Below, piece by piece: positions 14 through 51,177 of a stretch of 64,000 nucleotides of DNA (position 1 is its first letter; each line of letters begins with the position of its first letter). The stretch is from Deltaproteobacteria bacterium (GTDB taxonomy: Bacteria > CG2-30-53-67), in the NCBI GenBank assembly GCA_013151235.1, contig JAADIO010000032.1, forward strand, positions 2,166-66,165, read 5' to 3'. The position numbers and the translations under genes are program-made. The notes under the pieces were generated by a model, which worked only from the letters and a program-made list of their open reading frames with translations, was not told the DNA's origin and did not search any database.

Positions 14-1342
14 TCATCTTGTGCGTGCATGTTCCATACGCTTAGTAGTTGATAGTGCTTCTTGCGGTGTATCTTGAATCTCTTTTCTTATGATAGCGGA
101 AACGATAATTTGTATCGGCAGAAAAACGGCCGTAATTGCGTTTATGAAGAAAATACAGACACAAAAACCAGCAATCCCTGCTTCTATTGCTCCTAAAAAT
201 GAAAACAGTTCTTTATTTTTTTCTGTAACCGGGATGATTTTTCTGAGTGTCCTGTTTTTGAGAAACGTACCGAAAACAAGCAGAAAGTAGGGAACAGCCG
301 CAAATAGTCCGGCATCGGAAAGAATTTCAATATAGGTATTATGAGTAACCTTGGGATTATAATTCCTGAAGACCCATGCCTTGAAATCAGGTTCCAGATA
401 GTCGAAGTTGTTTTCATATTCCATTTTTGCCAATGGGTAGGAAAGAAACCCGGTACCGAATAAAGGGTGGTCCCGGAATACCATCAGACCAGCCTTCCAG
501 AGGATTATACGGGACTTTGCGGACCATCCCAGGGTTTCTTCGTTTTCCATTGATGAGACCCTTCGCACGTAACTCTGGCTTATGAATGGTAAAACGATGA
601 CCGTGATCAGAAGGGCGGCTATCAGGGCTTTGGTTCTGTTATTTATTCTAAGAATCATCACGGCGACAACCGTGGCAAATCCCAGAAGTCCTCCCCGCGA
701 CTGAGTAAATATGACCAACAAGATCATAATAGTTGAAGCCGTGAAACCAATAAACTTTGTCTTGTTATTGTCCCCGTCGAAGAGCTTTTGAAAGGCCAGT
801 GGAGAAGTTAGGACAAAAAGTGCCGCTACACCATTCGTATCTGAAGAAGCATGTCCACCCAGACCTTCCAGACGAGCATTTCCTAAAAAGTGTTGCTGTA
901 TCCCCCAGATTCCGAGCAGCACAAAACTGAAGAGTATGAAGTTCTCAAGTGTTCTGATTTCCTGAAAGTTATTAACAAGAACAACAAGCAATACAGCATA
1001 AAGATAGGTTTTGACGATTTCGTTTGCATAATAATAGGATCTTGAAATTTCATAGTGAGACAGAAAGATAGAGAGAATCAATGCGCCATAAAGCCATAGG
1101 ATTAGCAAGGGCTGTGGTTCCAGAAATGACTTGAAGGTAAACCGACCGGAATTCAGGATAGTGGCGATCCATGTGCAAGCAAAGAGAACCACAAAAGTTT
1201 TTGCACCAGTGTTCCCACCCCAAAAAAACATCTCCGGGCGGATGATGTTGAAAAAGGTATACAGGATCAGTCCCCATAGGGGTCTTCTCCAGATGAAGGG
1301 AAGAGAAAGAAAGATGAATGCCCAATAAACGGATGCTCTCAA
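14..1342 (-). CDS. O-antigen ligase / Wzy-like polysaccharide polymerase family membrane protein
   Basis: 442-aa ORF that is almost entirely hydrophobic helices, with a loop region (HFLGNARLEGLGGHASSDTNG ... TQSRGGLLGF) typical of Wzy_C/O-antigen-ligase proteins. Last gene of the co-directional EPS operon. Confidence 0.6.
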   Translation of the reverse strand: MRASVYWAFIFLSLPFIWRRPLWGLILYTFFNIIRPEMFFWGGNTGAKTFVVLFACTWIATILNSGRFTFKSFLEPQPLLILWLYGALILSIFLSHYEISRSYYYANEIVKTYLYAVLLVVLVNNFQEIRTLENFILFSFVLLGIWGIQQHFLGNARLEGLGGHASSDTNGVAALFVLTSPLAFQKLFDGDNNKTKFIGFTASTIMILLVIFTQSRGGLLGFATVVAVMILRINNRTKALIAALLITVIVLPFISQSYVRRVSSMENEETLGWSAKSRIILWKAGLMVFRDHPLFGTGFLSYPLAKMEYENNFDYLEPDFKAWVFRNYNPKVTHNTYIEILSDAGLFAAVPYFLLVFGTFLKNRTLRKIIPVTEKNKELFSFLGAIEAGIAGFCVCIFFINAITAVFLPIQIIVSAIIRKEIQDTPQEALSTTKRMEHARTR

Positions 1343-4289: not shown

Positions 4290-5330
4290 CTACCACGAAA
4301 GAAACGATTTTCGATACTCAAAGAAGCCTGACATGCTCAATCGATAAAAGCTTTTACGTGCTGATATGTCATTGCCCACACCGACGCGAGGGATAGAAAG
4401 TGGATGGTCCTTGCCCGGATTGTACAGTCCGTAATCCGTGGCAAACGCGCATTTGTAGCCGTAATGAGCCAGTAATTTCCTATGTTCTGGTGAGTAATCC
4501 TTTCCAAACTGGCCATTCGGGTAACAGAACGCCCTGATCTCATGCCCTAACTTTTTTTCAAGCCTTATTTTCGACCCGGCCAATTCTCCTTCAAGCAGTT
4601 CCTCCGGTGTGTTTGTGAGAATTCTGTGGGTAGCGGTATGGGAGCCGAATTCAATCAGTCCTTCTTTGTCCATCTTGAATACTTCAGGCCAGGTCAACAT
4701 CCCGAAATCATCTATGTAAGTGGATCGGTCGAAGCCAACCTGGGAGACAACCTGCTGCAAAAGAGCGGATCTTTCATTGCCGTGCTTTCTCTTCAGGTAT
4801 TCCACCTCCATGTGGTAAGCTTCATAATATTGTTTTTTCGAGAAAAGAAAGTTTGCCTGTGGGTTGGTAAGCCGGAGGTTTGCTTGCTGTTTTCCGGCTT
4901 CGAGAATGGTCAGCAATAGTTCGTCAACCCAGAAAAACCGGTCCGAGTTTATGTAATCAACAGTAAGGAAAATAACGGTTGGAATCCTGTATCTTTTCAG
5001 GATCGGGTAGGCGACAGTCATGTTATTCCTGAAACCGTCATCCAGGGTGATTAAAACGGAATGATCAGGGAGGGGGTTGTCTGTTGCCGCCGCCGACAAG
5101 ACTTCATTTAATGAAACGGGGTTATAGTATTTCGCGAGCCAGGAGATCTGTTGCTCGAAGATGCGCGCAGGTAACAATGTCCATGCAGAAGGAGGATTTT
5201 TGCTTTGTGTAACTCCATGATACGTCACTACCAGAAGGCGTTTCCGGTATCTGTGCCGCAGAAATCGGCTGACGCCTGCAAAAAGCAGGATGTTACAGAA
5301 GGCAATCTTTGTGAACTCCTTAAATGTCAT
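4290..5330 (-). CDS. Polysaccharide deacetylase (NodB homology domain), PEP-CTERM-locus type
   Basis: N-terminal TM segment, then LVVTYHGV and LITLDDGFRNN (NodB motif 1) and HTATHRIL. I moved the start to MTFKEF (5330), which gives an ATGA overlap with the stop of the upstream 862-aa ORF. The track ORF extends to 5393. Confidence 0.75.
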   Translation of the reverse strand: MTFKEFTKIAFCNILLFAGVSRFLRHRYRKRLLVVTYHGVTQSKNPPSAWTLLPARIFEQQISWLAKYYNPVSLNEVLSAAATDNPLPDHSVLITLDDGFRNNMTVAYPILKRYRIPTVIFLTVDYINSDRFFWVDELLLTILEAGKQQANLRLTNPQANFLFSKKQYYEAYHMEVEYLKRKHGNERSALLQQVVSQVGFDRSTYIDDFGMLTWPEVFKMDKEGLIEFGSHTATHRILTNTPEELLEGELAGSKIRLEKKLGHEIRAFCYPNGQFGKDYSPEHRKLLAHYGYKCAFATDYGLYNPGKDHPLSIPRVGVGNDISARKSFYRLSMSGFFEYRKSFLSW

Positions 5331-7915
5331 TTGTTTTTTATACGGGCTTTCAGCCAGTTCCACTCTCTTTTTAGATTTGTCTTTGCACAACATCCGGCAA
5401 CATCAGACAGGATTCTACGAAAAAGTCCGGGCATTGTGTAACGGAATGGCGATGAACTGTATTGTCCGCTGCCGGGGCTTTTCCTTTCGTGAACGGGATG
5501 GACGGATTCGCCGGGGTCCGGGATCCATCCGTTCTGCAGGGCCAGGACCATGGGGCGTGTCAGGAATCGTGTTTCACGGCTCTGTAATTCTTTGAAACTT
5601 TCCGTCAGGAAGAACCGGCAACGTTCAATGAATCGCTTGCGATTCTCGGATGGGGCGTATCGAGCTGCAAGATAAAAGACGACGCTTTTCCGAAGGTCCT
5701 GGGCGGCCCACGTTTCGTTAGGGTATTCAAGGACTCCGGGCCTTGTCAAAGTCGGGTATTCATTCTCTGCCATCCAGCCTGCATAGTGCAGCAGGGTGTC
5801 TTTTGCATAAACGTAATCATTGTCGAACTCGTTTAATTCACTCTTTTTCTCAAGATACTTCCCGGTTGCAACCAGAAAAACCGTATAGGACCACCAGCGT
5901 TCGACATTATTCAAGTCGCGGGAGGCGATGTTGTCATTCGGGTGCACCGTGCCCTGGATCAGGCGGGTTGCGATATCGAGATATTTCCTGTCCGACGAAA
6001 GCTCAAAGGCATCTAGAGCCGCGGAAAGGCAATTTCCGGTGCCTCGGTCAAGAGGAAAACACGGCCATATTCCCGCTTCTCGTTTCCCGCGCCACCAGGA
6101 ATGCAGATATTTCTTTGCTCTCAGAAAAGATGCGAGAATGGTTTGCGGCCCTTTCAAGGAGAGGTAACACCAGTCGGCGAGCCTGAGTACCTCCTCCCGG
6201 AAACGAGGATTCCCGGTCAGAAGATGATGAACCATAAGTCCTGTTGTATAACAGTGTTGCGCGGCAGGCCCGCCTCCAACGAATGCGGGGTTTTTGTGTT
6301 TCAAGTGTTCCCTGGATGAACTTCGATGAGTACTGAGTCCGGCATCCAGGTAATGGTCGGTGTGCCAGAAAAGGCCGTGACAGTATTCCTCACGGTCTTC
6401 ATCCGTATGGTTGATATCAATGTCAATGACATGACGGGCCAGATCCGAGGCCAGCCCCGCCCATCGGAAGTCGCCGGTGCGGAAATACTCGCGATAAAAA
6501 GAGGCGACGGCATCGTATTGGTTATTGTAATGTGAGACAAAAGGCCTCTTCCCCCTGTGGTAGACCGCCTCGTGGTCGGCGTACAGTTCCCCGAAATTAC
6601 GCCATCCGTATTCGTCGACCATTTCCCGCTTGGCCATAAAATTGTTCGGTCCTTCAAGAGCTGCGGCCGTAAATTCCAGGTATTGGGGGTCGGCTGGCTC
6701 GCCGCCGGTAATGTCGTTGGACAGCCCGGACTGCCCGATCGTTTCCTGTGAAAATGTTATCTCCGGTGGCCCAAGTCCCCAACCCGCCTGATCCAGAGTA
6801 GTTGCAAAATCAAGATGAAGAAGATGTGTTTTTTGCTCCCCCCCCTGTAATTCATGCAAGTCTGGAAACTTTTCCGGGAAGAATGATATATTTATCATAT
6901 CGTCATGGAATCCCATTGCTTTGGGGAATTCCTGCCAGAATTGCGAAAGGACGACAGAAAGTCCGTTGGTGCTTGGTCCCGCCCAGAGAATCGGCCCGGC
7001 CCTCTTCCCGGTCATTATGACATGATCATCCTGCAATACCTGATATCCTCGTATCGTCATAGGGACATTGCCGTTTCGGTTCCTATGATTGGGGCTGCAC
7101 CAGTTTTCACCGCCGCTCGACTCCTGGTAAATGATTAGTGGCCCGCCTTTCTCGAAAGTCCGCCATGGTTCCCCGATAGAGGTTTTGTAATAATAATCGG
7201 CGCCGAAGTCTTTATTCAGGGACAGAGACACAACGAGTTCCTTGAACAAGAATGAAGAAGGATCACCAAGATCCCAGATTCCGTCCGGATGTTTTGCCGC
7301 TCGGGAATTGTGGAGTGTAAACTCGATGCATGTTTTTGCAGTCCCTGTATAAAAATGCAGTCTTGCCTGGAATAAGAGTTTTTTGTCCCGGCCGAAATGG
7401 CCCTTGATATTGAGCGTTAAGCGGACCGGACCACGGGCTTCAATGGCTGTTTTTTCAATGACGGCAGGCAACTTCAGGTTATCCTGATCTTTTAGCCAGA
7501 GGTCACTGCCGGTATCACCGAGGATATCCTGTCCCTCTACCCGTACCCTCCGGAAAGGGAGCAGCCTGGAAGAATCCAGGACAAAAAAAGCGGCGCCGGT
7601 ATCGATCTCGATCATATTGCCGGCTGAATTGCAGTATATTACCTCCTGCGCATGTTTCAAGGTCTTCACGGGTTCAAGACGCAGATGGACCTGTTCCTCG
7701 GGTGCCATGTCGACGAGGAAATCACAGCGCAGCCATTTAACGCTTCTGTCCGGCCAGTGGGCCAATGGTGTTGTCTGAACCGGGATTGACCGGCCCTTCC
7801 CGTTGAGAACAAAATCGCTGTCCTGCTTCACGATGCCTTGCGGGCAGGGAATGCCGATCGTGGCCGGGTATCTTGTTCGTTGGAGATGGGATGGATTTGT
7901 GATTTTTATTTGCAT
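5327..7915 (-). CDS. Large hypothetical protein, possibly a glycan-active enzyme (PcRGLX/YetA-like three-domain architecture)
   Basis: 862-aa ORF with no signal peptide or TM segment. The N-terminus (IGIPCPQG...FVLNGKGRSIPVQTTPLAHWPDRSVKWLRCDFLV) recalls the RIFT-barrel N-domain of exo-rhamnogalacturonan-lyase-like proteins. The C-terminal half looks helical and toroid-like. The CDS is solid; the function is uncertain. Confidence 0.5.
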   Translation of the reverse strand: MQIKITNPSHLQRTRYPATIGIPCPQGIVKQDSDFVLNGKGRSIPVQTTPLAHWPDRSVKWLRCDFLVDMAPEEQVHLRLEPVKTLKHAQEVIYCNSAGNMIEIDTGAAFFVLDSSRLLPFRRVRVEGQDILGDTGSDLWLKDQDNLKLPAVIEKTAIEARGPVRLTLNIKGHFGRDKKLLFQARLHFYTGTAKTCIEFTLHNSRAAKHPDGIWDLGDPSSFLFKELVVSLSLNKDFGADYYYKTSIGEPWRTFEKGGPLIIYQESSGGENWCSPNHRNRNGNVPMTIRGYQVLQDDHVIMTGKRAGPILWAGPSTNGLSVVLSQFWQEFPKAMGFHDDMINISFFPEKFPDLHELQGGEQKTHLLHLDFATTLDQAGWGLGPPEITFSQETIGQSGLSNDITGGEPADPQYLEFTAAALEGPNNFMAKREMVDEYGWRNFGELYADHEAVYHRGKRPFVSHYNNQYDAVASFYREYFRTGDFRWAGLASDLARHVIDIDINHTDEDREEYCHGLFWHTDHYLDAGLSTHRSSSREHLKHKNPAFVGGGPAAQHCYTTGLMVHHLLTGNPRFREEVLRLADWCYLSLKGPQTILASFLRAKKYLHSWWRGKREAGIWPCFPLDRGTGNCLSAALDAFELSSDRKYLDIATRLIQGTVHPNDNIASRDLNNVERWWSYTVFLVATGKYLEKKSELNEFDNDYVYAKDTLLHYAGWMAENEYPTLTRPGVLEYPNETWAAQDLRKSVVFYLAARYAPSENRKRFIERCRFFLTESFKELQSRETRFLTRPMVLALQNGWIPDPGESVHPVHERKSPGSGQYSSSPFRYTMPGLFRRILSDVAGCCAKTNLKREWNWLKARIKNK

Positions 7916-12540: not shown

Positions 12541-14985
12541 TCAGTCCGACTGCAACCTGTGGAACTTGGTCCATGTGACCGGCTGTTTGTTCAATATTCC
12601 CTTATAGATTCCGTATAATGCCGCTCCATTCATCAGGCAGAAATAATAAGGAAACAGGAATGTTTGTAATGGGTGGTCTCTCCGCTTTACCACGAAACCG
12701 GTGAAGGCGAATCCGTAGAAGAGAAACTGGACGGCCAAGATCATGCGGTAACCCGGCTGTCCGTAGGACAGGGCGAGGTGAATATTTGCAAGAAACAATG
12801 AAATCAGGAAAAAAGGCGCAAACCAGCGCAGCAGTTTATGTGACAGATAACAAAACATCTCCCGTGTGACGAGGGATGAGGGGATCCCCTGCCTCTGCTT
12901 GAGCGACTGGATGGCTCCCGCGATGACCCTTGCTTGCCGGAAGAATTCCTCCCGGGGAGAAAGAAAATTCCGTTCTTCTGCGATCGCTTCTTCTTCGTAT
13001 ATCAGGCGGTGACCGCTCGAGACGATCGTCATAGAAATTACAAAGTCGTCCAGAATGGTATCCGGCGGTGGTGGTACGAAAAGTTCTTTCCGGATGGCGT
13101 ACAGGCCGCCGTCGGCCCCGATCATGGATCCAAGATCCGTCTCTTTCCGCTGGATCCAGCGTTCATAGATGTAATAGATTGATCCGGATTTCCCCAAAGT
13201 TGTTTCCTCGCCGCGGAGGATTACGTCCGCGCTGACGGCCCCTACGGAAGGGTCGGCGAAGTTTTGTACCAGTTTACGTACGGCATCCCGTCGGCACATG
13301 GTGTTGGCATCGGAAAAAATGATGATCTCACTGTCAATCTCCGGGACCGTCTTGTTGATCACCGCTGTTTTCCCTTCTCGGGTCTGATATTGCATTAGGG
13401 TTACGCGATCCTCATCCTCCCGGAACTTTTGTATCCTTTCTCGGGTGCGGTCCGTAGACCCGTCGGAAGCAATGATAAACTTGATTTTGTCTGTTGGATA
13501 GTCCAGTTCAAGGCAGTTCCTGATTTTCTCTTCGATGACTTCCTCTTCGTTATATGCACAAATCAACAAAGAGACCGTTGGAGTGATCTCCTGTTTCTTG
13601 ATCTTCCTTCGATAAAAGAGAGTGACGATTCCCAAGATAAGCGGATAACCGACATACACGTATCCGAGCAGGAGAAGTGAGAACCGGAAAACAAGGTGTG
13701 TGAAAAACCGGAGCGGAATCCGGCCTAAGTGGAGAGCGAGACAGATTGCATAGATCGACAGCACTGCCATGAACAGGTGGATGATACAGCGGTTCCGGGT
13801 GAGGAGGTTTTCGGATACTTTGTCTTCTTGCCCTCTCGCGTGGTTCCATGTCGAGATGATATTTCCCTGCAAGCTTTTTGCGATACCCAGCAGGGAGGCA
13901 ATGTTCATCAGAATGAAGTAGTAGGCATAGGGAACAAGAGGCGCCCGGATATGTTTTTCGGAAAGGAGCATTCCCAGATAAGCCATACCGGTGAATGCTA
14001 CAATAAAGAGAAATGTGAATTGATAGACGGATCGTCCGGAAGCGGAGAGCAGGAAGCAGGAAACAAAGAATAAAAACAGAAATAGAGGTGAAAACCATCG
14101 CAGCAGTTTGTGAGAAATAACCTCAAGCGCGAATATTCCCGTTTTGAAAGGGTTCATAACGCCTTTCAGTCTCATCAGGCCGCTGAAGCTCCTGTTGACG
14201 ATCCGGATTTTACGTCTGAACTCTTTTTCATAGGTCCCGGCCGCCTCTTCATAGGAAATTGCGGCGGGTTCATAGATGCCGCGGTATCCTTTCAAAATGA
14301 TCTGGAGGGGGTTCACGAAATCATTGATGTCTGTTTCTAATAACGGTTCGTAAAGATCTTTCCGGATTGCATAGATGGCGCCATCGCCGCCGACGATGGA
14401 ATGCAGGTCGGACTCCATTTTTTTAATGAGGGTTTCATGATTCCAGTAGAGGTTTTCGCTTTTCCCGGCCATGGTTCTTCCCGGATCGGTGTAACGGGCT
14501 TGTCCCACGACGTATCCCACGGTGGGATCATGAAAATTTCGGACTAATTTTTTAATTGCATTCTTCCGGTAGATTGCATTGGCATCGGAAAAGATGATCA
14601 GTTCACCCTTTGCGAGCGGTATCGCCAGGTTGAGGCCGGATGTTTTGCCCATACGTTTTTCTTGGCGAACCAGCCTCACCCCTCGGTCCTCATATTCGCG
14701 AACGATCGAGTCTGTCTGATCCGTAGATGCATCGGAGACGACCAGTATATCCAGCTTGCCTTTTGGATAGTCCAGCGACAAACAGTTTTCAAGCTTCGAT
14801 CGGATAACATCCTCTTCATTGTAGCAGGAGATCAGCAAACTGACGGACGCTCCGGTCTTCTCCCGGAGGATTTCTTTTTTCGGAATTACAAATCGCAGTA
14901 CCACGAGGAGAAGCGGGTATCCGATGTAAGTATAGAGAAGTATCAGAAGTGACAGGAATGCAGTGACCTCAAGAAAAGGGATCAT
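12541..14985 (-). CDS. Tandem-duplicated membrane glycosyltransferase family 2 (two complete GT2 modules in one polypeptide)
   Basis: 814 aa. Module 1 reads VSLLISCYNEEDVI..LDYP..VSDASTD..IIFSDANAIY..SHKLLRWFSP. Module 2 reads VSLLICAYNEEEVI..LDYP..ASDGSTD..IIFSDANTMC..SHKLLRWFAP. Each module is flanked by TM helices. Confidence 0.8.
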   Translation of the reverse strand: MIPFLEVTAFLSLLILLYTYIGYPLLLVVLRFVIPKKEILREKTGASVSLLISCYNEEDVIRSKLENCLSLDYPKGKLDILVVSDASTDQTDSIVREYEDRGVRLVRQEKRMGKTSGLNLAIPLAKGELIIFSDANAIYRKNAIKKLVRNFHDPTVGYVVGQARYTDPGRTMAGKSENLYWNHETLIKKMESDLHSIVGGDGAIYAIRKDLYEPLLETDINDFVNPLQIILKGYRGIYEPAAISYEEAAGTYEKEFRRKIRIVNRSFSGLMRLKGVMNPFKTGIFALEVISHKLLRWFSPLFLFLFFVSCFLLSASGRSVYQFTFLFIVAFTGMAYLGMLLSEKHIRAPLVPYAYYFILMNIASLLGIAKSLQGNIISTWNHARGQEDKVSENLLTRNRCIIHLFMAVLSIYAICLALHLGRIPLRFFTHLVFRFSLLLLGYVYVGYPLILGIVTLFYRRKIKKQEITPTVSLLICAYNEEEVIEEKIRNCLELDYPTDKIKFIIASDGSTDRTRERIQKFREDEDRVTLMQYQTREGKTAVINKTVPEIDSEIIIFSDANTMCRRDAVRKLVQNFADPSVGAVSADVILRGEETTLGKSGSIYYIYERWIQRKETDLGSMIGADGGLYAIRKELFVPPPPDTILDDFVISMTIVSSGHRLIYEEEAIAEERNFLSPREEFFRQARVIAGAIQSLKQRQGIPSSLVTREMFCYLSHKLLRWFAPFFLISLFLANIHLALSYGQPGYRMILAVQFLFYGFAFTGFVVKRRDHPLQTFLFPYYFCLMNGAALYGIYKGILNKQPVTWTKFHRLQSD

Positions 14986-16135: not shown

Positions 16136-17272
16136 TTAGAAGATGGATTCTTTGGCTCGCCGGTAATAATATTTCAGGGTTTCCAGCATGGAGGGATAAT
16201 AGACCCGCATGTTGCAGTTGTTGCAGATCGCGATCTTTTTCTTTTGCTGCAGCGACACGAATTGCCTGTGTCTTTCATTTCCCCATATTTTGTCCAGGTC
16301 TGTTTTTAGAAGATTTCCAATGACGTAGGAGCGGTAAAACGGACAGGGAACGACATCTCCGTTCGGATTGAGAGTGACAAAGGTGGTTGCAATATGACAG
16401 TGTTTATAATCATACAGGCCCGACAGAAATGTCTGTTCGCTGGTGACGTCGAGCGCTCTGAAATTTACATAGATTTTCTGATGATGTTTCTTTGTCTGCT
16501 TGATGAGTTCTTTGAACTCGACCAGTTGCTCACGGTTCAGCAGGTGTGATGCATCCTCGGAAGATACGAAGTAGGGCTCGGGCTGAACTCCGTTGATCTT
16601 GGATAAATTGATGTTCTCCTGGCTAAATTCCCCTAAAAACCGGGGGTAAACTGCATCGATATGGTATTGTTCAAGAAACCGGATAATTTGGGGAAAATCC
16701 CGGTAATTCATGTTGGAAAGCGTGTTGCATATAATGATCTTGGGGTAGGTGCGGGAGCCTCGGATATCAATGAAGTTCTCGAGTGCATCCGTTATTTTCT
16801 GAAAGGTTCCGTCGATGCCCCGGATCCCGTCATGCTTTGTGCCGACATCGTCTATAGAGAGATAGACGGTATGTAACCCGTACTCTATCAAGGTGCGGAT
16901 CGTTTCTTTGTCGCACAGATTCCCGTTTGTCGGGAAATAGGTCCGGATCCCGTTTTTTGCACAATATTGAATCATATCAAAAACGGCATCCTTTCTTAAA
17001 AGGGCATCGCCGCCGAAGATTTCAAATGACCGGATGCCGTGATCTTTCAGTCTTGCAAGAATCGTCAGCCACTCGTCTCGACCTAATTCTTGCGGTTGTT
17101 CGCTGTTCCTCTTCCATATATTGCAGGTCTTGCACCGGCTTGTGCACCGATAGGTTAAAAACCCCATAGAGTCCGCTGCGCTTAAGGATAAATGGCGATA
17201 TTCATAGCGGATCAATTCCGGGATCTCCCGGAGGCCGGGAACGATATTTCGGATGATTTTAGAGGCATTCAT
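16136..17272 (-). CDS. Radical SAM protein with C-terminal SPASM/twitch-like Cys cluster
   Basis: CTSRCKTCNIW (CxxxCxxC) near the N-terminus. C-terminal HC..x..GDVVPC...CNNC cysteines. I chose the start at MNASKII (17272) to avoid overlap with the upstream DUF362 gene. Confidence 0.75.
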   Translation of the reverse strand: MNASKIIRNIVPGLREIPELIRYEYRHLSLSAADSMGFLTYRCTSRCKTCNIWKRNSEQPQELGRDEWLTILARLKDHGIRSFEIFGGDALLRKDAVFDMIQYCAKNGIRTYFPTNGNLCDKETIRTLIEYGLHTVYLSIDDVGTKHDGIRGIDGTFQKITDALENFIDIRGSRTYPKIIICNTLSNMNYRDFPQIIRFLEQYHIDAVYPRFLGEFSQENINLSKINGVQPEPYFVSSEDASHLLNREQLVEFKELIKQTKKHHQKIYVNFRALDVTSEQTFLSGLYDYKHCHIATTFVTLNPNGDVVPCPFYRSYVIGNLLKTDLDKIWGNERHRQFVSLQQKKKIAICNNCNMRVYYPSMLETLKYYYRRAKESIF

Positions 17273-17282
17273 TGATTTGCCC

Positions 17283-18296
17283 TTACAGGGAAAGATGGAT
17301 GCTGCGCGGGTTGGTTGTCCCCAATCCACGATCGGCGGCGGTCTGGATGAAGACCGGGGCAGGAGACACCGGTTCCAGGCCGTGTTCTTTGCGTTTCTTA
17401 TCGATGATTTTCCATCCGGTATAATCTATCGCTACCGGATCGTCTGAAATGATCAGTTGATTCAAGGGATCTACATATTTCTGGTCTCTTCCGTTGATCC
17501 ACTTGTATTCGACGAAGATGGCGTCCAGCACGATCAGGCGGGTCTTGTCCCGGATTTGCGGTTGGGCGTTCAGGTGGGGCAAAAACTCCATGATATCCTT
17601 GTGGTGATGCGACGGGTTCCCGATGGAGCCGTAATGATTCTTCATGCTGAGAGATACGCCGGAGTAACCTTCCAGGGCCTTCAGGACAGGCACATTGATC
17701 AGATAATCACACCGGTATTTGTTCTCACTGAGAGGAATGCCGCCGGTTAACAATTTCGCCATACGGTTAAAAAGGAAACGGTGATAACCACCGAGATCGT
17801 CGACCGTCCCGACCTTGATCCCCGGCCCGAGATTTTTCTCGAAGCCGGCATAACGGAATGCGTGATCGGTCTTGTCATAGATGACGATATTGTCCGGTCG
17901 GACCCCACGCTGGATCAGTCCGTCCGTGACAGCCTTGACAACCTTCGATTTGGTATAGATGCCTTGGATCTGGCAGTTAATCTTGATCGCAACCCTCTTG
18001 GCCGGATCCGGAATGATTTTTGACCAAGCTTTTAACAAGTTTCTTTCACCGGTAAAAGACTTGATCCCTTCATCCAGCATCTGTTTGATCACTTGTTCAT
18101 CCAGATTCTTGTTATCGCGTTCGTCCGTAAGGTCTGATGCCCTGTCGTGATGGACGGAGACGAGCATACTCTTTCTTCCACTGTGCGCATGACTGTTTTT
18201 CAGAGAGGGCAACCACTTCAGGAAAAAACCGGCACCCAGAACAGATAAAACTTTTACCAGGAAGTGTCGCCGGTTTATATTACGTAAAAACGACAT
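17283..18296 (-). CDS. DUF362-like protein with twin-arginine (Tat) signal
   Basis: 337 aa. N-terminal NRRHFLVKVLSVLGAGFF looks like a Tat signal. The body (VAIKINCQ..., DPVAIDYTGWKII) resembles DUF362 proteins, a family call made from memory. Confidence 0.5.
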   Translation of the reverse strand: MSFLRNINRRHFLVKVLSVLGAGFFLKWLPSLKNSHAHSGRKSMLVSVHHDRASDLTDERDNKNLDEQVIKQMLDEGIKSFTGERNLLKAWSKIIPDPAKRVAIKINCQIQGIYTKSKVVKAVTDGLIQRGVRPDNIVIYDKTDHAFRYAGFEKNLGPGIKVGTVDDLGGYHRFLFNRMAKLLTGGIPLSENKYRCDYLINVPVLKALEGYSGVSLSMKNHYGSIGNPSHHHKDIMEFLPHLNAQPQIRDKTRLIVLDAIFVEYKWINGRDQKYVDPLNQLIISDDPVAIDYTGWKIIDKKRKEHGLEPVSPAPVFIQTAADRGLGTTNPRSIHLSL

Positions 18297-20356: not shown

Positions 20357-21397
20357 TTATGCGATAATGTTCTTCCGTACCATCGGCCCCATAATCTTGC
20401 TCAGTCCGACCGGAAGTCTTTTCCAGACTGCGACCATCCGTGCCATGGCGGGACTGATCCGGTTTCCGGCTTCCGTCATGCCCTGGTTTTTTGCCCAGCA
20501 GTCCCAATAGAGTTGTTTCGGTTCCGCCCCCCACTGTGCCTTGAACCGGTATGTCCCCCCGTTCGGGGTGGATCTGCCGAAGTCGAATTTTCGGAATCCA
20601 TGTTCACAGGCATACTCGAGGGTCTTCCAGTACAGGAGCATGTTCGGGGCGAAACGGTTGTAGCTTCTGAGGGATGAGGCCCACGGGATTTCAAGGCGAC
20701 CGCGAAATCCGATGAGAAAACCCGAGGCGACCGGGACCTCCCGTGCGTATACAACACAGATCACGGCCCGGTTCGGGAAGAGGTCCAGGATATTACGGAA
20801 CAGCTTCTTGCCGTGTACCGGAGAGCCGAGATCCCGCATGTTTACGGCAAAGACATGGTAGAAATCATCCAGCAGTTCCTTGCTTCCGAAGTGTGCTTCG
20901 AACCCCTCCTTCATTGGTTTTTTGATCTGGCTTCTGAGCTTGGATCTGAAGGAAGTCCAGAGTTCATCGGGGGATTCGGGAAGATCGAGGATCATGGAGA
21001 CCTTGCACTGATTCCGGGTGAGGCCGAGTTCATAAGATTCCGCATGGCGTAGCTCCAGCGCCATCCGATGCTTCCCGGCAAGTTCGATCGCCGCATCGAG
21101 CAGTTTTGTCCGGACATCGTTATTCTCTGCAACGATGCCTCCGTAGTTCACGAAGGGCATGGAAACCAGGAAACGACCGAAGATCAGGCTCTTGACGTAC
21201 ACCAAGGGAAGAACCCCGACGATCTGATCTTCTTTTTCGGCACATAGGTAACAGGTTTGATGAGGAAAGGTCCTTTCCATCAGTTTCTTCCAGGAGAAAA
21301 GATGATAGAGCGATGCCGAAGGAGTCTGAAGAACGAAATCGTCCCAGGCTGTTTTTTGCTCCGGGACTAGGTAGGATATTTGAATGCTTTGTTTCAC
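20357..21397 (-). CDS. FemAB-family protein, PEP-CTERM/exosortase-system associated
   Basis: 346 aa. AWDDFVLQTPSASLYHLFSWKKLMERTF...LPLVYVKSLIFGRFLVSMPFVNYGG is typical of the FemAB-like proteins found next to exosortases. Confidence 0.7.
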   Translation of the reverse strand: MKQSIQISYLVPEQKTAWDDFVLQTPSASLYHLFSWKKLMERTFPHQTCYLCAEKEDQIVGVLPLVYVKSLIFGRFLVSMPFVNYGGIVAENNDVRTKLLDAAIELAGKHRMALELRHAESYELGLTRNQCKVSMILDLPESPDELWTSFRSKLRSQIKKPMKEGFEAHFGSKELLDDFYHVFAVNMRDLGSPVHGKKLFRNILDLFPNRAVICVVYAREVPVASGFLIGFRGRLEIPWASSLRSYNRFAPNMLLYWKTLEYACEHGFRKFDFGRSTPNGGTYRFKAQWGAEPKQLYWDCWAKNQGMTEAGNRISPAMARMVAVWKRLPVGLSKIMGPMVRKNIIA

Positions 21398-25097: not shown

Positions 25098-26768
25098 ATG
25101 CCGGTAAGTACACCTCCGAAAACCCGTCCTTTAGGGGAACGTCTGATTGATGCGGGGCTTTTAACCTCCGAGCAGCTTCGCATCGCGCTGAAGGAACAGA
25201 AACGAACGAAAGAGATGCTGGGCCGGATCCTGGTCCGGCTGGGATTTACCACACAGGAGCAGATCGAGGCGGCCCTGGCGCAGGAGTCGGGGACCGTTCA
25301 GAAAAATCTCGAATTTGTCGAGATTGATCTTGATGCCGTCAAACTGATCAATGAGGAGACGGCCCGGAAATACAAACTGATTCCGGTCTCCCGGGAGGGA
25401 GAGGTGCTGACGGTTGCCATGGTCGACACCTTTGACGTGGTGGCCATTGACGAAGTCCAGAACGAGTCAGGTCTTGATGTGAACGTGATTGCCGCCTCGG
25501 AGAAGGATGTCCTGGAGGCGATCAACAAGTATTGCGGATTTTCCGGGTCCATCGATGAAGTGGTCGATCAGGCCCTTGCCGAGGGGCTGGGGCGTGATCG
25601 GGCCGACCAGGAGGCCCAGGAGGCTCCGATCATCCGCCTGGTCAATCAGTTGATCCTTCGCGGGATTAATGAAGCGGCAACGGATATTCACTTCGAACCG
25701 GACGAAAAGGTCCTGCGGATTCGTTACCGTCTGGACGGGGCCTTGCAGCAGGGGTTTCTCCTGCCCAAGCAGTTGCAGCCTTCGGTCATTGCCCGGATCA
25801 AAATCCTGGCCGACCTGAACATTGCTGAATCGCGCATCCCCCAGGACGGCAAGATCCGTTTTCAAATCGGGAAGAAAGATATCGATCTCCGTGTTTCCAC
25901 CCTTCCGACCATTTACGGGGAGAACGTGGTGATGCGGATTCTCGACAAGTCAAAGGTCCTTCTGGGGCTGGAGGACCTCGGTTTTTCCCCGCAGAATCTC
26001 GAGATTTTCACCGAGATGATTCAGCGCCCTCACGGGATCATTCTCGTCACCGGGCCCACCGGATCGGGCAAGACGACGACGCTCTACACGGCTCTTTCCC
26101 ATATCAACTCTCTGGACAAGAAGATCTGCACCCTGGAGGATCCTGTGGAATATCAGCTCTCGGTGATTCGTCAGACCCAGATTAATGAAGAGATCGGTAT
26201 GACCTTTGCCGCCGGTCTGCGCTCCTTGTTACGACAGGACCCCGATGTGATTCTTGTGGGAGAGATGCGGGATACGGAAACCGCGGAGATGGCCATCCGG
26301 GCGGCCCTGACCGGACACCTGGTCTTTTCCACCCTTCATACCAACGATGCCGCCGGCGCTCTGCCGCGGTTGATCGATATGGGGCTGGACCCTTATCTCC
26401 TGGCCTCTTCCATCATCATGGTCCTGGCCCAGCGGCTGGTCCGAAAGATCTGCCCCGACTGCAAGGAGGCCTATACGGTCCCTGCCGAAGAACTGCGGGC
26501 TCTTGGACTGGCCGAGATGGAAGGGTTTTCCTTCTACAGGGGGGCGGGCTGCGATAAGTGTAATCAGTCCGGCTATCGGGGGCGGGCGGCCATTTATGAA
26601 CTTCTTCCGGTGGATCACACCGTTCATGATCTGATTCTGCAAGGGGCTTCCTCCGTCGAGATTCAGAAATCTGCGATGTCACAGGGGATGACGACCATGC
26701 GGAACGACGGATTCAAAAAAGTAGTGGTCGGTTTGACGACCCTCGACGAAGTGATGCGCCTGACGTAA
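25098..26768 (+). CDS. GspE/PilB/MshE-family secretion ATPase with N-terminal MshEN c-di-GMP-binding domain
   Basis: 556 aa. Walker A GPTGSGKTTT, Asp box, Walker B ILVGEMRD and a tetracysteine motif (CPDC...CDKC). The N-terminal tandem 24-residue MshEN motifs are described in the findings. Confidence 0.9.
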   Translation: MPVSTPPKTRPLGERLIDAGLLTSEQLRIALKEQKRTKEMLGRILVRLGFTTQEQIEAALAQESGTVQKNLEFVEIDLDAVKLINEETARKYKLIPVSREGEVLTVAMVDTFDVVAIDEVQNESGLDVNVIAASEKDVLEAINKYCGFSGSIDEVVDQALAEGLGRDRADQEAQEAPIIRLVNQLILRGINEAATDIHFEPDEKVLRIRYRLDGALQQGFLLPKQLQPSVIARIKILADLNIAESRIPQDGKIRFQIGKKDIDLRVSTLPTIYGENVVMRILDKSKVLLGLEDLGFSPQNLEIFTEMIQRPHGIILVTGPTGSGKTTTLYTALSHINSLDKKICTLEDPVEYQLSVIRQTQINEEIGMTFAAGLRSLLRQDPDVILVGEMRDTETAEMAIRAALTGHLVFSTLHTNDAAGALPRLIDMGLDPYLLASSIIMVLAQRLVRKICPDCKEAYTVPAEELRALGLAEMEGFSFYRGAGCDKCNQSGYRGRAAIYELLPVDHTVHDLILQGASSVEIQKSAMSQGMTTMRNDGFKKVVVGLTTLDEVMRLT

Positions 26769-26784
26769 TTCCCGGGGACAGGCA

Positions 26785-27984
26785 ATGCCCGAATATACCT
26801 ATAAAGCGAGAAATACGGAAGGCAAACTGATCAACGGTGTGATGGCTGCGGTCAACCCGGAGGATCTCTATGCAAAGCTGTCCGGGATCGGCTGTTATCC
26901 CACCGGTTTCGAGATCCGGAAGAATGTCTCCCTCGGGGTGAGGAAAAGGGTCTCACGGCGGGATCTGATTACTTTCACGGTTCATCTCGGAACCATCCTT
27001 GCCTCGGGGATCCCGATCCTCACCGGCCTGAAGGACCTGCTGGAGCAGACCGAGGTCGGGTTTTTCCGTCAGGTCATTGAAGACATCCATCGGAATATCG
27101 AGGCCGGTCTTTCCCTCTCGGCCGCGATGGCGGAGTACCCGCAGGTCTTTTCCGAACTGTATGTGGCCATGGTTTCCGCCGGGGAGAGTACCGGGAAAAT
27201 GGAGGAAACCTTCCAGAGTCTGACCTCCTATCTGGAGTGGCAGGAGGACCTGATGGGGCAGATCAAGCAGGCGACCCTTTATCCCATTGTTGTTTTCTGG
27301 GCCATCGTTGGGCTGGTGGCCCTGATCTTTACCGTGGTCCTGCCGAAATTTCTCGTTATCTTTGAAAAGAGCCATGTGGCGCTCCCCCTTCCGACCCGGA
27401 TCATTATTTCGATCAGTCATTTCATGCTCCACTCCTGGCCGATGCTGCTGTGCGGGATCTTTCTCTTTTTCCTGGCGCTGCGCTTCATCAAAGGGATTCC
27501 CGCCACCCGGATCGCCTATGACCGGCTCAAATTGATGATCCCAGTTTTCGGGGCCTTAAGTCACAAGATTATCCTGGCCCGGTTTGCGCATACCTTCAGT
27601 TCCCTGTACCGTTCCGGCGTCAATATTATTCATGTTCTGGAATTGATGGAGAAAACAACGGGCAACCGGGTTTTTGAAAGAGCGGTCGTGGAGATCCGCC
27701 AGAGGGTTCAGGAAGGACGGGGTGTTGCCGAGACGATGCGGGAGACGGGGCTCTTTCCTCCCCTGTTCGTTCGGATGGTTTCCATCGGGGAAGAGACAGG
27801 AAGCCTTGATTTTACCCTGGAGAAACTGAGCGGTTTTTACGACCGTGAGGTTCCGATGACCGTTAAAAAGGTCTTCGGTATCATGGAACCGTTGATCATT
27901 GTGATTTTGGGGGGAATCGTGGGGACGGTGGCCATGTCGGTTTTTCTGCCCCTCTACAAGATGATGAGTGTGGCCGGAGGTTAA
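26785..27984 (+). CDS. GspF/PilC/MshG-family inner-membrane platform protein
   Basis: 399 aa. Two repeated T2SS_F domains and 3 TM segments, positioned immediately after the ATPase. Confidence 0.9.
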   Translation: MPEYTYKARNTEGKLINGVMAAVNPEDLYAKLSGIGCYPTGFEIRKNVSLGVRKRVSRRDLITFTVHLGTILASGIPILTGLKDLLEQTEVGFFRQVIEDIHRNIEAGLSLSAAMAEYPQVFSELYVAMVSAGESTGKMEETFQSLTSYLEWQEDLMGQIKQATLYPIVVFWAIVGLVALIFTVVLPKFLVIFEKSHVALPLPTRIIISISHFMLHSWPMLLCGIFLFFLALRFIKGIPATRIAYDRLKLMIPVFGALSHKIILARFAHTFSSLYRSGVNIIHVLELMEKTTGNRVFERAVVEIRQRVQEGRGVAETMRETGLFPPLFVRMVSIGEETGSLDFTLEKLSGFYDREVPMTVKKVFGIMEPLIIVILGGIVGTVAMSVFLPLYKMMSVAGG

Positions 27985-27987
27985 ACG

Positions 27988-29577
27988 GTGGTTTTTTTTT
28001 CATCCAGATTGGTTGTCGGCATGGAGATCAGCGGGAACGTCATTCGTCTGGCTCTGCTCCGGCGCTTGCGAAAAAAAGATTCTCTGGAGGGGCTGATTCG
28101 ACTGGAAGCACCGTCCGACAATATCGAGGATGTCCGCCGGACGCTCACCGATGGTGTCCGCCGGAACGGTCTGACGGGAACGCCCGCAGCCATGATTCTC
28201 CAGGACCCCCGCATCCTGCACCGGGCTTTCGCCTTGCCGAAGATGTCGCAGAAAGAGATTGATGCTGTCGTTCCCTTTGAAGCACGAAAGGCCTTCGGGG
28301 TCAGGCGGGACTTCCGGATCGTTTACCATGTACATACCCGTTATCGGGAAGAAGGGGTCCCGAAGATTGAGGTCCTTGCCGCTGCGGTCCCGGGGGAGAT
28401 CGTGCAGAATGCCCTCGATCTGATTCGGGCCGCCGATCTGGTCCCGTACTATCTCATGTCCCTTCCATTTGTACAGTCGCAGCTACCTTCAGCCGCTCTG
28501 ATCTCGGAAACGGAGGAGACGGTGGCTCATCTCCATATCACCCGTATGGGGGTCGATCTGACGGTAACCCGGGGGGGGCATTTTCTCTTTTCCCGCTTGA
28601 TCCGAAAGGAGATCGACTTTTCCCGATTTGATATGACGCCGATGTCGGCGGAACCGGCCTCTTTTGAGAACGACGGCATGGAAATTCTCTCTATTGCCGA
28701 GGAGACGACCGGTGAAAAGGACGATCCTTTCGAACGTCTCTGTACGGAAATCAATCGATCCTTCCTCTATGTCAAACAACAGAACAAGGAGTCCGTAAAG
28801 CGGATTCGGCTGACCGGGGAAGGAAAAAGATTCCCGAACCTGGTGGAGCAGTTGCAACATCACTTAAAACTTCCGCTGACCGTCCTTGAAAATTTGCCGG
28901 GGCTGGATCGGCCGGTCATCTGTACGCCGGCAGCGGGAGAGGAGGGGGAATACGATCTTTGCGTGGCGGTGGCCAAAACCCCCTCGATCTTTTCCACGGC
29001 CAATCTCCTGCCGGAAGAGGAGCAGCTTGAATGGAAAAAGCGATCCGCCCAACGGATTGCAAAGGTTGCCTACATGGTGACGTCGGTCCTGGTCCTGTTT
29101 CTTTATGTGCAGCTTTCCTATCATGTGTATCATGATCAAGTGGAGGCACGGAGATTGCGGCAGGGATATGCCCGGGTGGATCACCGGTTTGAAGGGGTGC
29201 GCCGCACACTTCAGGTTCAATCCGACCGCCTGTTGAGGCGGGCGCTCTGCCGGGGACTCACTTCGGCATCCATTCCTCCGGAGGATGTTCTGGCGGCACT
29301 TGCCCTCTATGCGCCGGATACCGTTGTCCTGAAGCAGTTGGTGGTGCAAGGGGGAAGCCGACCCTTTTTCATGAGGCTGTCGGGAAGGATCGTCCTGCCC
29401 GATTATTCCGGTGGGGAGAAAGAACTGGATCACTTTTTGAATCAATGTAAAAAGACGGGTTTATTCAAGACCGTCCGGGGACGAATCGGTGCCGCTGCGG
29501 ATCAGGGGGAATCGGGACGGGTACAAGTTGCCTCCGTCGGCCGGAGGCGGATCCCGATCGAAATCGAAGGAGAATGA
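27988..29577 (+). CDS. PilM-PilN fusion (MshI-like) assembly protein
   Basis: 529 aa. An N-terminal actin-like region of ~330 aa, a single TM segment (AYMVTSVLVLFLYVQLSY), then a PilN-like periplasmic tail. GTG start. Confidence 0.6.
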   Translation: MVFFSSRLVVGMEISGNVIRLALLRRLRKKDSLEGLIRLEAPSDNIEDVRRTLTDGVRRNGLTGTPAAMILQDPRILHRAFALPKMSQKEIDAVVPFEARKAFGVRRDFRIVYHVHTRYREEGVPKIEVLAAAVPGEIVQNALDLIRAADLVPYYLMSLPFVQSQLPSAALISETEETVAHLHITRMGVDLTVTRGGHFLFSRLIRKEIDFSRFDMTPMSAEPASFENDGMEILSIAEETTGEKDDPFERLCTEINRSFLYVKQQNKESVKRIRLTGEGKRFPNLVEQLQHHLKLPLTVLENLPGLDRPVICTPAAGEEGEYDLCVAVAKTPSIFSTANLLPEEEQLEWKKRSAQRIAKVAYMVTSVLVLFLYVQLSYHVYHDQVEARRLRQGYARVDHRFEGVRRTLQVQSDRLLRRALCRGLTSASIPPEDVLAALALYAPDTVVLKQLVVQGGSRPFFMRLSGRIVLPDYSGGEKELDHFLNQCKKTGLFKTVRGRIGAAADQGESGRVQVASVGRRRIPIEIEGE

Positions 29578-29581
29578 CCCC

Positions 29582-30214
29582 ATGGAACGACTCCCCGGGG
29601 TGAAACGATTTTTGAAGACCCACCAGAACTGGGTGCAGATGACCCTTCCAGGGCTGGTGATTGCGGGGCTGGTCCTGGTTCTGATCGTTCCGAAGGTCAG
29701 GCAGTGGTATGCCCTGCAGCAGGAGATTGGAAAGGTGGGCAGGCAAATGGAACGAGTCTCGATGGATTTGGCTTCTCTCCCGCCGGAGCGGCTTCAGCGC
29801 CTTGCCCGGGCCGATGCGGACGATCGGGAACGGCTGCCCGGCCGGGGTCGGTTCTACACCTACCTGGGGCACCTCCGGGAACTGGGCCGCTCCCTGGGGA
29901 TTGATGAGATCACTTATTTTCGGGGTGCAGTGGAACGGGTCGACATGGATGAGATTCTGGCTCGTTCGACCTTCAATGAGTTGCCCATCTCTCTGGATCC
30001 GGACTCGAATGTCTTGTATGGCATTCCCGTGAAGATCCAGTTTCAGGCCCCCTACCGGACCCTCTATCGGTTTCTGAGGTCGCTCCGGGGAGGAAAACGG
30101 TTGACCGATATCCGGGAAGTGCGGGTCAAAAAAAAATCCGGATCTCTTGCGGTGGAGATGAAGATGGAACTCTATTATCTTGTGAAAAATTCGGGAAGAA
30201 AAGATGCTGCGTAA
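29582..30214 (+). CDS. PilO/MshJ-like assembly protein
   Basis: 210 aa. One N-terminal TM segment, a coiled-coil segment (QWYALQQEIGKVGRQMERV) and a periplasmic domain. Called from position and topology only. AAGGAGAA Shine-Dalgarno upstream of the ATG at 29582. Confidence 0.4.
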   Translation: MERLPGVKRFLKTHQNWVQMTLPGLVIAGLVLVLIVPKVRQWYALQQEIGKVGRQMERVSMDLASLPPERLQRLARADADDRERLPGRGRFYTYLGHLRELGRSLGIDEITYFRGAVERVDMDEILARSTFNELPISLDPDSNVLYGIPVKIQFQAPYRTLYRFLRSLRGGKRLTDIREVRVKKKSGSLAVEMKMELYYLVKNSGRKDAA

Positions 30215-30677
30215 CAAGGTCTTCTTCCTGCTCCTGATCGTGTCGGTGTTCTTCGCCGTTTACCGGAATTATACCTTTTTCCGCAAACGGTTCCATGCCA
30301 TGACACCGTCGGCGATGGCCTCTCTGCCGGTTTCGCCGGATCGGGTGCCGGGGGAGAAGAAAGAAGACAAAGTCGATGGACTCTCCACCGCCGACCGGCT
30401 CCGGTTTGCGGCGGGCGCAGGCCGGGACCCTTTTGTCCTTCCTGGAGGAGAGACTTTCGCTGTGCCGCAAGTGTCGTCGAAAACGAACCGGTTGCCCCGC
30501 CTGAACGCTGTTCTGTGGAGCCGGGGACGTCGGGTTGCCTTGTTGGATGGGGAGATCCATCAGGAAGGGGAGAATATCTCCGGACACAGGATCCTCCGGA
30601 TTGAGCCGGATCGGGTGATCCTGGCCGGTGGGGGAGGCGAGGTGATGATCGAGCTGAAAAAGGGGGAAACCCCCTGA
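30204..30677 (+). CDS. PilP/MshK-like small periplasmic protein
   Basis: 157 aa. N-terminal TM/signal anchor. The C-terminal beta-rich segment (VALLDGEIHQEGENISGHRILRIEPDRVIL) is typical of PilP/GspC HR-type domains that contact secretins. Confidence 0.35.
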   Translation: MLRNKVFFLLLIVSVFFAVYRNYTFFRKRFHAMTPSAMASLPVSPDRVPGEKKEDKVDGLSTADRLRFAAGAGRDPFVLPGGETFAVPQVSSKTNRLPRLNAVLWSRGRRVALLDGEIHQEGENISGHRILRIEPDRVILAGGGGEVMIELKKGETP

Positions 30678-30696
30678 ACACAAAGGAGGAAATCTT

Positions 30697-47098: not shown

Positions 47099-47251
47099 GG
47101 CGAAGAGGGGGTAGTAAGTCCGTGTTGTTCAGGTCCCATTGACCTTGTGAGAGAGGGGGTTGTGATGGGTACATTCTGGGAAAATCTCAAAAATATGTTT
47201 GTGCGGACTGTTCCTCCGGGAGCAGCCGGGCAATCGCAGAAAGGAGCTGCC

Positions 47252-47698: not shown

Positions 47699-47775
47699 GC
47701 GCTTCAGCCGCGGGAGGGGGGAATCCCCCCTCTTTTGCCCCCCTCCTGCGGATTTTACCCATTTTTAATTTAAGG

Positions 47776-48747: not shown

Positions 48748-48780
48748 TCGATAACCCTAATATCAGAAGGAGAAAACGTT

Positions 48781-49803: not shown

Positions 49804-49817
49804 TCAGGAGGCATGGA

Positions 49818-51175: not shown

Positions 51176-51177
51176 AG

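Follow-up and report, generated by a model that had tools for sequence, protein, structure and literature searches.

A tandem fusion of two membrane-embedded family 2 glycosyltransferase modules in an exosortase-associated exopolysaccharide operon

In many environmental bacteria, among them Nitrospira, relatives of Geobacter, sulfate reducers, Acidobacteria and anammox bacteria, flocculation and biofilm formation are driven by exosortase/PEP-CTERM exopolysaccharide systems, whose glycans and enzymes are, to our knowledge, almost uncharacterised. Multi-domain glycosyltransferases are common. Exosortase-linked clusters have been treated as Wzx/Wzy-dependent, both in Geobacter sulfurreducens (PMC10599522) and in a preprint (10.64898/2025.12.21.693542). 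The solved glycosyltransferase that comes closest to the protein described below, PcManGT of Pyrobaculum calidifontis (Protein Data Bank entry 6YV7), has been described as having a 'minimal cellulose-synthase-like fold'. Here we report a protein of 814 amino acids (aa) in which two complete membrane-embedded modules of glycosyltransferase family 2 (GT2) are joined head to tail. It is encoded in a 64,000-nt stretch of DNA from a deltaproteobacterium of the GTDB lineage CG2-30-53-67 (GenBank assembly GCA_013151235.1, contig JAADIO010000032.1, positions 2,166 to 66,165; hereafter the window, meaning the whole stretch analysed). With a probability of roughly 55%, we interpret the protein as two PcManGT-like membrane GT2 enzymes, both inverting and non-processive, that are joined covalently into a pseudo-heterodimer and add two sugars to a lipid-linked repeat unit.

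The gene and the parts of its product are located as follows (TM, transmembrane helix; GT-A, the catalytic domain; AF2, AlphaFold2).

12541–14985, minus strand: tandem membrane GT2 fusion of 814 aa, one uninterrupted open reading frame (ORF) with an ATG start
13801–14985, minus strand: module 1, residues ~1–395 (BLASTP, Pfam, alignment, AF2, profile match to 6YV7)
Module 1, parts: TM1, residues 2–33; GT-A domain, 48–246; basic helix, 252–272; amphipathic helix, 284–297; hydrophobic helices after H-K-L-L-R-W, 299–315, 319–343 and 351–372
Module 1, key residues: D85, D89, D134-A-N136, N221-D222, R258xxR261-I262, H292-K-L-L-R296-W297
13726–13800, minus strand: inter-module connector, residues ~396–420 (hydropathy, AF2, homologue alignment)
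12541–13725, minus strand: module 2, residues ~421–814 (BLASTP, Pfam, alignment, AF2)
Module 2, parts: TM1', residues 425–457; GT-A domain, 471–672; basic helix, 677–696; amphipathic helix, 707–721; hydrophobic helices, 723–741, 744–766 and 774–797, then a basic C-terminus
Module 2, key residues: D508, D512, D559-A-N561, D646-D647, R683xxR686-V687, H716-K-L-L-R720-W721

The two halves of the protein (residues 1–400 and 401–814) align with each other at 39% identity over 385 aa (BLASTP, E 1e-76). Identity amounts to 45% over 193 aa in the catalytic cores, a value that agrees with the 40–45% estimated by eye in an earlier note on this DNA, and to 31% over 131 aa in the C-terminal helix regions. 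PF00535 matches two stretches, one per module (165 bits, cut-off 23.3), and other GT2-related Pfam models likewise match the protein twice. The motifs recur in pairs (VSLLISCYNEE/VSLLICAYNEE, SDASTD/SDGSTD and HKLLRWFSP/HKLLRWFAP), and LDYP and IIFSDAN are present in both modules. The single ORF and the occurrence of every listed motif in both halves bear out the view of the earlier note that the protein is a head-to-tail fusion of two complete TM-GT2-TM modules. The ATG of the gene overlaps the TGA of the GT4 gene upstream (ATGA), and a gene for a GT2 of 305 aa begins 7 nt beyond its stop codon, so the fusion is part of a tight operon.

The fusion is widely distributed. A word-indexed search of 5.8 billion proteins yielded at least 120 clusters, nearly all of 790–830 aa, which cover 95–100% of the query at 44–86% identity; more than 110 protein clusters have the same fused architecture, and where clusters are named, the names are only 'glycosyltransferase family 2 protein' or 'cellulose synthase/PNAG synthase-like' (PNAG, poly-N-acetylglucosamine). 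An exhaustive search of 1.84 billion representatives at the 50%-identity level returned 3,491 relatives at E<1e-30, and only 18 of the best 150 have two modules, in keeping with the statement of the earlier note that synthase-type GT2 enzymes are normally single-module; the rest are single modules of ~370–420 aa that are 35–53% identical to either half. GTDB contigs, with one genome per species, contained 49 loci with both modules, and in 45 of these, from five or more phyla, the modules lie in a single frame (Acidobacteriota 14, Desulfobacterota 11, Nitrospirota 10, Planctomycetota 4, Poribacteria 1, others 5). Isolates with a fused gene include Desulforhopalus sp. IMCC35007, Geomonas limicola Red745 and Rhodopirellula sallentina SM41.

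The conservation of the active sites was assessed in an alignment of 46 full-length homologues at 43–86% identity, including the window protein. In module 1 the columns of D85, D89, D134, D222, R258, R261, H292, R296 and W297 are invariant, as are those of D508, D512, D559, D646, D647, R686, H716, K717, R720 and W721 in module 2, and separate per-module alignments confirm the conserved catalytic residues. D85 and D508 are the donor-binding Asp residues, and the DxD-type motif reads D-A-N in both modules, with Asn in the third position. In an hhalign comparison with Escherichia coli PgaC, the catalytic E-D of PgaC falls on N221-D222 and D646-D647, and its QRLRW lies opposite R258-K-I-R261-I262 and R683-Q-A-R686-V687; the distance between the catalytic Asp and the QxxRW-equivalent is 36 residues, as in PgaC. 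Judged by their sequences, both modules keep the residues for donor binding and catalysis and look catalytically competent, and the invariance of the key residues in both modules indicates purifying selection on both active sites. The earlier note had considered that one module might lack its catalytic Asp residues, and the invariant Asp columns answer this for both. A degenerate second module was rejected for the window protein on the same grounds.

In cellulose, chitin, hyaluronan, PNAG and Nod-factor synthases, the Trp of QxxRW stacks on the acceptor sugar. This Trp is replaced by Ile in module 1 and by Val in module 2, and the Gln is replaced in both as well. In nearly all of 26 N-modules, 26 C-modules and 105 single-module representatives, the Trp position is occupied by I, V, M or T. 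The segment K293-L-L-R296-W297 was considered as the true QxxRW equivalent and rejected, as the spacing of 36 residues and the hhalign result favour R258..I262, and HKLLRW lies one helix further on. The invariant H-K-x-x-R-W cluster, which is predicted to lie at the membrane interface, is a plausible, if speculative, candidate for the binding site of the acceptor lipid diphosphate.

The best solved relative in sequence and profile searches was PcManGT (6YV7; the whole protein gave E 2e-22 and a module-1 profile E 1e-33), and BcsA was matched at 1e-5 to 1e-7. An AF2 model of the 814-aa protein, built on 46 homologues, had a mean predicted local distance difference test (pLDDT) score of 91.1 and a predicted TM-score (pTM) of 0.71. 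Foldseek again retrieved 6YV7 (E 4e-18, TM-score 0.80–0.81 relative to the target, ~387 columns), together with BcsA, hyaluronan synthases and Chs1 at TM-scores of 0.3–0.5, and with the E. coli K4 chondroitin polymerase K4CP, which is found because both domains align (overall TM-score 0.2–0.3). No curated NCBIfam family covers the 814-aa protein, and every top match is far under its cut-off (PgaC_IcaA 161 of 422 bits, NodC 92 of 550, CelA 49 of 699, XrtG-associated GT2 model 107 of 364; MftF is also among the top matches, under cut-off). The earlier assignment of the modules to the processive cellulose/PNAG/hyaluronan type finds no support, in view of these low scores, the replaced QxxRW Trp and the fact that PcManGT is the closest structure.

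In the AF2 model, a basic helix directly C-terminal to each GT-A domain carries R258xxR261-I262 or R683xxR686-V687, and the amphipathic helix of each module ends in H-K-L-L-R-W. The basic inter-module loop (residues 373–391 or, in wider limits, 372–399) has a low pLDDT and is poorly ordered. It is followed by an extra hydrophobic linker helix (392–420 according to AF2, ~398–420 according to hydropathy) that has no counterpart within either module and is clearly hydrophobic in 42 of the 46 homologues. Hydropathy and AF2 predict nine hydrophobic helices in the whole protein, with four in each module, the last of which is weakly hydrophobic. Across the 46 sequences, Lys plus Arg residues number 0.2 at the N-terminus and 4.2 behind TM1; the inter-module loop has 4.8, the short loop that follows the linker helix 1.3 and the C-terminus 4.0, and the topology was read from these numbers by the positive-inside rule. 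Hydropathy and charge together suggest that each module has about three TM helices, in addition to the single linker helix. The number of membrane crossings per module appears to be odd, with the N-terminus outside and the C-terminus inside, so that an extra TM linker would be needed to bring both catalytic domains to the cytoplasmic side. The three antiparallel TM helices reported for PcManGT (PMC10569066) agree with an odd number.

In a neighbour-joining tree, N-modules and C-modules formed separate clades, and single-module proteins nested in both. The two halves are therefore old paralogues rather than the result of a recent internal duplication, and N- and C-modules likely have different specificities. 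The single-module form is the ancestral and majority form. Several natural variants separate or modify the modules. In a Nitrospira metagenome-assembled genome (MAG; L059:9761-12337) the modules are adjacent genes split by a stop codon, and the second gene begins at its own TM1, without the linker helix. A lone C-type module in Desulforapulum (P0145) has kept the linker helix, a lone N-type module in a Geobacter MAG (L081:9953-11275) has a trailing linker-like helix, and the lone module in L001 (L001:8001-9266) also retains a linker-like helix. In divergent two-module lineages, catalytic and donor-binding residues have been lost from one module with the partner intact, namely from the C-module in P0131 and from the N-module in P0141 and P0159. 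These proteins look like natural half-dead pseudo-dimers. That three divergent fused lineages have each kept an inactive module is a hint of physical pairing between the modules.

The membrane GT2 module is also fused to GT4 domains (P0147, P0247), to different GT2 domains (P0168, P0210, P0245) and to an ATP-grasp domain (P0218). This variety of fusion partners argues for a step-wise assembly-line enzyme and against a self-sufficient synthase. In P0257 (955 aa), a membrane GT2 module, an exosortase (EpsH) and EpsI (DUF3485) form one polypeptide, which directly links glycan assembly with PEP-CTERM protein sorting. A two-module orthologue of 1154 aa (P0127) carries a C-terminal deacetylase of carbohydrate esterase family 4 (CE4). 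No TM helix lies between the two parts, and the deacetylase would thus be on the same, probably cytoplasmic, side; this layout suggests that the product of one of the modules is an N-acetylated sugar that is later deacetylated.

The genomic context of the fused gene is an operon that is cut by the edge of the window.

14–24129, minus strand: XrtA/PEP-CTERM exopolysaccharide operon (profile matches of the window proteins)
14–1342, minus strand: Wzy_C gene, at which the window edge cuts the operon
20357–21397, minus strand: pepcterm_femAB gene
33557–34150: PEP-CTERM protein

On the minus strand, the operon encodes, in this order, an epimerase, an exosortase, EpsI, two FemAB-like proteins, a formyltransferase-like protein, a DUF362 protein, a radical S-adenosylmethionine (SAM)/SPASM protein, a GT4, the fused GT2, the GT2 of 305 aa, an XrtA-type amidotransferase, a hexapeptide acyltransferase, a further GT4, a PcRGLX-like protein, a CE4 deacetylase, a hypothetical protein of 328 aa, a carbamoyltransferase and a Wzy_C/PEP_O_lig_1 protein. 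The exosortase passes TIGR02602 (189, cut-off 105.6), EpsI matches PF11984, one of the FemAB-like proteins passes TIGR03019 pepcterm_femAB (340, cut-off 260), and the amidotransferase has its best match to TIGR03108, under the cut-off (656 vs 817). The locus is an XrtA/PEP-CTERM exopolysaccharide locus with four glycosyltransferase genes besides the fused one. The ORF of the Wzy_C protein as listed has a TTG start and 442 aa; the database version of 100% identity (P0270) has 405 aa.

A gene for pepcterm_femAB lies almost always directly upstream of the GT2 gene, be it fused or single-module (loci L004–L083), and pepcterm_femAB and the membrane GT2 are a conserved gene pair. In the window, five genes are inserted between the two (those for the second FemAB-like, formyltransferase-like, DUF362, radical SAM/SPASM and GT4 proteins). 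The usual downstream genes across the loci encode a small GT2, an amidotransferase, a hexapeptide transferase, a GT4, a PcRGLX-like protein and a deacetylase.

A closely related operon is found on a contig (L085/L168) that encodes an orthologue of the fused protein with 86% identity and 812 aa, and its gene order is the same as in the window. Beyond the Wzy-like gene, this contig (L168) continues with genes for a small hypothetical protein, an APH-like kinase and a 505-aa Polysacc_synt/Polysacc_synt_3 protein (Wzx-type flippase), followed by a sulfotransferase, a CapK-like protein and another GT2. The Wzx gene lies 1.6 kb further on than the equivalent of the window edge. In L012 and in the Nitrospira-type loci L004–L006, Wzx homologues are also encoded at most 10 kb away from the fused gene, and in gammaproteobacterial loci they adjoin the single-module version. 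The suggestion of the earlier note that the fusion might supply a missing translocation function finds no support in this arrangement, since the window ends at the Wzy-like gene, Wzx follows in the syntenic contig and Wzx lies near other fused genes; the apparent gap is most likely an effect of where the window ends. The fusion provides no evidence of a new mechanism of export. In metagenomes, scanning with the Wzy_C protein gave no relatives, and a scan with the carbamoyltransferase found only relatives of 49–67% identity on short contigs and missed the syntenic contig.

The CE4 deacetylase (4290–5393, minus strand), together with the carbamoyltransferase and the FemAB-like acyl/aminoacyl transferases, recalls the logic of NodB, NodU and NodA. 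The radical SAM/SPASM and DUF362 genes (16136–18296, minus strand) lie inside the operon, are kept in L085 and suggest an unusual sugar or peptide modification. The PcRGLX-like protein of 862 aa (5327–7915, minus strand) has rhamnogalacturonan-lyase-like N-terminal domains, is conserved in many related operons and may be a glycan-processing lyase or hydrolase.

In the reading that we favour, the protein would be an inner-membrane enzyme made of two old paralogous copies of a small PcManGT-like GT2 module, in which a TM helix at the N-terminus leads to a cytoplasmic GT-A domain that is followed by interface helices and a short bundle of C-terminal helices, and the linker TM helix would let both GT-A domains face the cytoplasm. 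Both active sites are intact, and we infer two distinct, probably consecutive, inverting transfers from nucleotide sugars at the cytoplasmic face. The acceptor would be a membrane-anchored oligosaccharide, carried on undecaprenyl diphosphate, that forms the repeat unit of the exosortase-associated exopolysaccharide or glycan. This unit would then be decorated by the deacetylase, FemAB-like proteins, amidotransferase, carbamoyltransferase and acyltransferase, flipped by Wzx, and finally polymerised or ligated by the Wzy-like protein. The fusion would fix a 1:1 ratio of the two activities and set the two steps side by side. Of the proposal in the earlier note that the fusion is a two-sugar enzyme, one part stands, as two different glycosyl transfers by one protein are reasonable given that both modules look catalytically competent; the other part, a processive copolymer synthase, is unsupported.

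A processive enzyme with two sites, which would add alternating sugars and thread the chain through a channel of seven to nine membrane helices independently of Wzx and Wzy, is an unlikely explanation, even though it would account for the two intact GT2 sites in one membrane protein. The cellulose-synthase-like fold, with its matches to BcsA, hyaluronan synthases and Chs1, and the presence of PgaC and NodC among the top NCBIfam matches are in its favour, as are the pTM of 0.71, which suggests that the modules pack together, and the conserved polar or aromatic residues in the last helix of each module (e.g. Y356/Y781 and W380/W805). However, the QxxRW Trp is missing from both modules, the similarity to PgaC ends at the QxxRW-equivalent position or shortly beyond it, the scores for the processive families are 2.6- to 14-fold under the cut-offs, and each module probably has only about three true TM helices, as judged from hydropathy, charge and the description of PcManGT (PMC10569066). 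The context is also that of a different pathway, with Wzy-like and Wzx genes in the same operon in close relatives, single-module relatives in the same operon position alongside Wzx, and the module itself fused elsewhere to non-processive GT4 domains. In a second alternative, at least one of the modules would be a polyprenyl-phosphate glycosyltransferase like GtrB, ArnC and DPMS and make undecaprenyl-phosphate-sugar donors that are flipped for the periplasmic decoration of the glycan or of PEP-CTERM proteins. Matches of the module profile to GtrB (5ekp), DPMS (5mlz) and ArnC (8vxh, 9hwj) at E 1e-10 to 1e-5 would fit such a role, and the conserved basic H-K-x-x-R-W cluster, predicted to lie at the membrane interface, offers a possible binding site for a lipid phosphate. 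We likewise consider it improbable, as these matches span only the N-terminal GT-A half (~34–150) and are much weaker than that to PcManGT, the C-terminal architecture is unlike that of the two-TM GtrB type, and a periplasmic transferase of the GT-C type was not seen in the operon.

The half-dead proteins P0131 (C-module), P0141 and P0159 (N-modules), which have kept their inactive module, raise the question of whether the fusion is a structural pseudo-dimer with one catalytic module, the other serving as a scaffold or in acceptor binding. For the window protein this is very unlikely, as the key residues are invariant in both of its modules and in those of the 45 homologues aligned with it. 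That the fusion is a sequencing or assembly artefact joining adjacent genes has a parallel in the MAG with the two split genes (L059), and the earlier note had named a frameshift or stop between two ordinary genes as what would undo its interpretation. The comparative data eliminate this explanation almost completely: the ORF is uninterrupted in the window and in 45 of the 49 independent genomes, the orthologue at 86% identity is of nearly the same length, more than 110 independent clusters share the architecture at a length of ~800–815 aa, and the fused proteins have a dedicated linker TM helix that the split pair lacks.

Several points weigh against the pseudo-heterodimer. NodC, whose TM region is comparably small, shows limited processivity in that it makes short oligomers, and the modules retain a cellulose-synthase-like core and match PF13632 along its full length. 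The Wzy_C protein scores under the PEP_O_lig_1 cut-off, the evidence for Wzx comes from relatives and not from the window itself, and neither a priming transferase nor Wza/Wzc genes were seen within the window. The mannosyltransferase activity proposed for PcManGT is said to be unconfirmed or disputed (PMC8993221). Finally, the two modules and the linker might form a compact two-site synthase with a Trp-less acceptor site that passes an alternating disaccharide through a channel between the helix bundles. We regard this as unlikely; if it were true, such a channel-forming enzyme would be the membrane-embedded counterpart of the soluble bifunctional glycosaminoglycan polymerases.

The remainder of the window contains several other gene sets. 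Divergent from the exosortase operon lies a type II secretion/type IV pilus-like set (25098–33248, plus strand) that encodes a GspE-like ATPase, GspF-like and PilM-like proteins, a secretin and a TPR protein, and is followed by the genes for the PEP-CTERM protein mentioned above and a PilZ protein (35835–36542). A histidine kinase with PAS and GAF domains and a sigma-54-dependent response regulator (41680–45574, plus strand) may be PEP-CTERM regulators of the PrsK/PrsR type (PMC1569441). A corrinoid-dependent methyltransferase cluster (46067–53154, plus strand), with two URO-D/MtaA-like genes and genes for an MtrH-like protein, a B12-binding protein, a ferredoxin and the reductive activase RACo, points to anaerobic methyl-group metabolism in the source organism.

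With its linker helix, split forms and half-dead variants, the fusion is a naturally occurring 'linked dimer' of a membrane GT2 fold that is still poorly understood, and it offers a handle on this class of enzymes and on exosortase-linked glycans. It is therefore a convenient target for structural and biochemical studies of how small cellulose-synthase-like GT2s recognise lipid-linked acceptors, whether they are paired, and how an acceptor is bound without the QxxRW Trp. The literature searched contained nothing specific on tandem, dual or fused GT2 membrane enzymes or on this gene in exosortase clusters.

Among the described systems, PcManGT (Pcal_0472-type) is matched nearly end to end by each module, with the N-terminal TM, GT-A domain, interface helices and small helix bundle in common, and in the alignment it also has an H…W motif where the C-terminal helices begin. 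It is a single archaeal module of 356 aa with DAD in place of the DAN of the window protein, which differs further in consisting of two diverged modules joined by an extra TM helix and in being bacterial and encoded in an exosortase operon. With BcsA, PgaC/IcaA, NodC, class I hyaluronan synthase and chitin synthase, the modules share the GT-A core and the layout of the D, DxD and catalytic Asp residues, and also the conserved Arg of QxxRW, the interface helix that follows it and a PgaC-like spacing between the catalytic Asp and this motif. Unlike these processive synthases, they have replaced the Trp and Gln of QxxRW, have fewer TM helices per module and occur in a gene context of the Wzx/Wzy type rather than the synthase type. 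K4CP and the Pasteurella enzymes PmHAS and PmHS2, bifunctional glycosaminoglycan polymerases of the kind whose logic the earlier note invoked, resemble the fusion in having two GT-A domains per chain, each with an active site; however, they are soluble or peripheral, without TM helices, elongate free chain ends and belong to ABC-transporter-dependent capsule systems. The single-module GT2s of exosortase loci (~380–420 aa; Marinobacter, Saccharospirillum, Dasania) are 40–53% identical to one module, have the same motifs and occupy the same position directly after pepcterm_femAB, without the linker helix. The GT2 family, the fold and the type of pathway are thus already known; what is new is that two complete membrane-embedded modules are fused in tandem by way of a topological linker helix, a conserved arrangement that occurs in many lineages.

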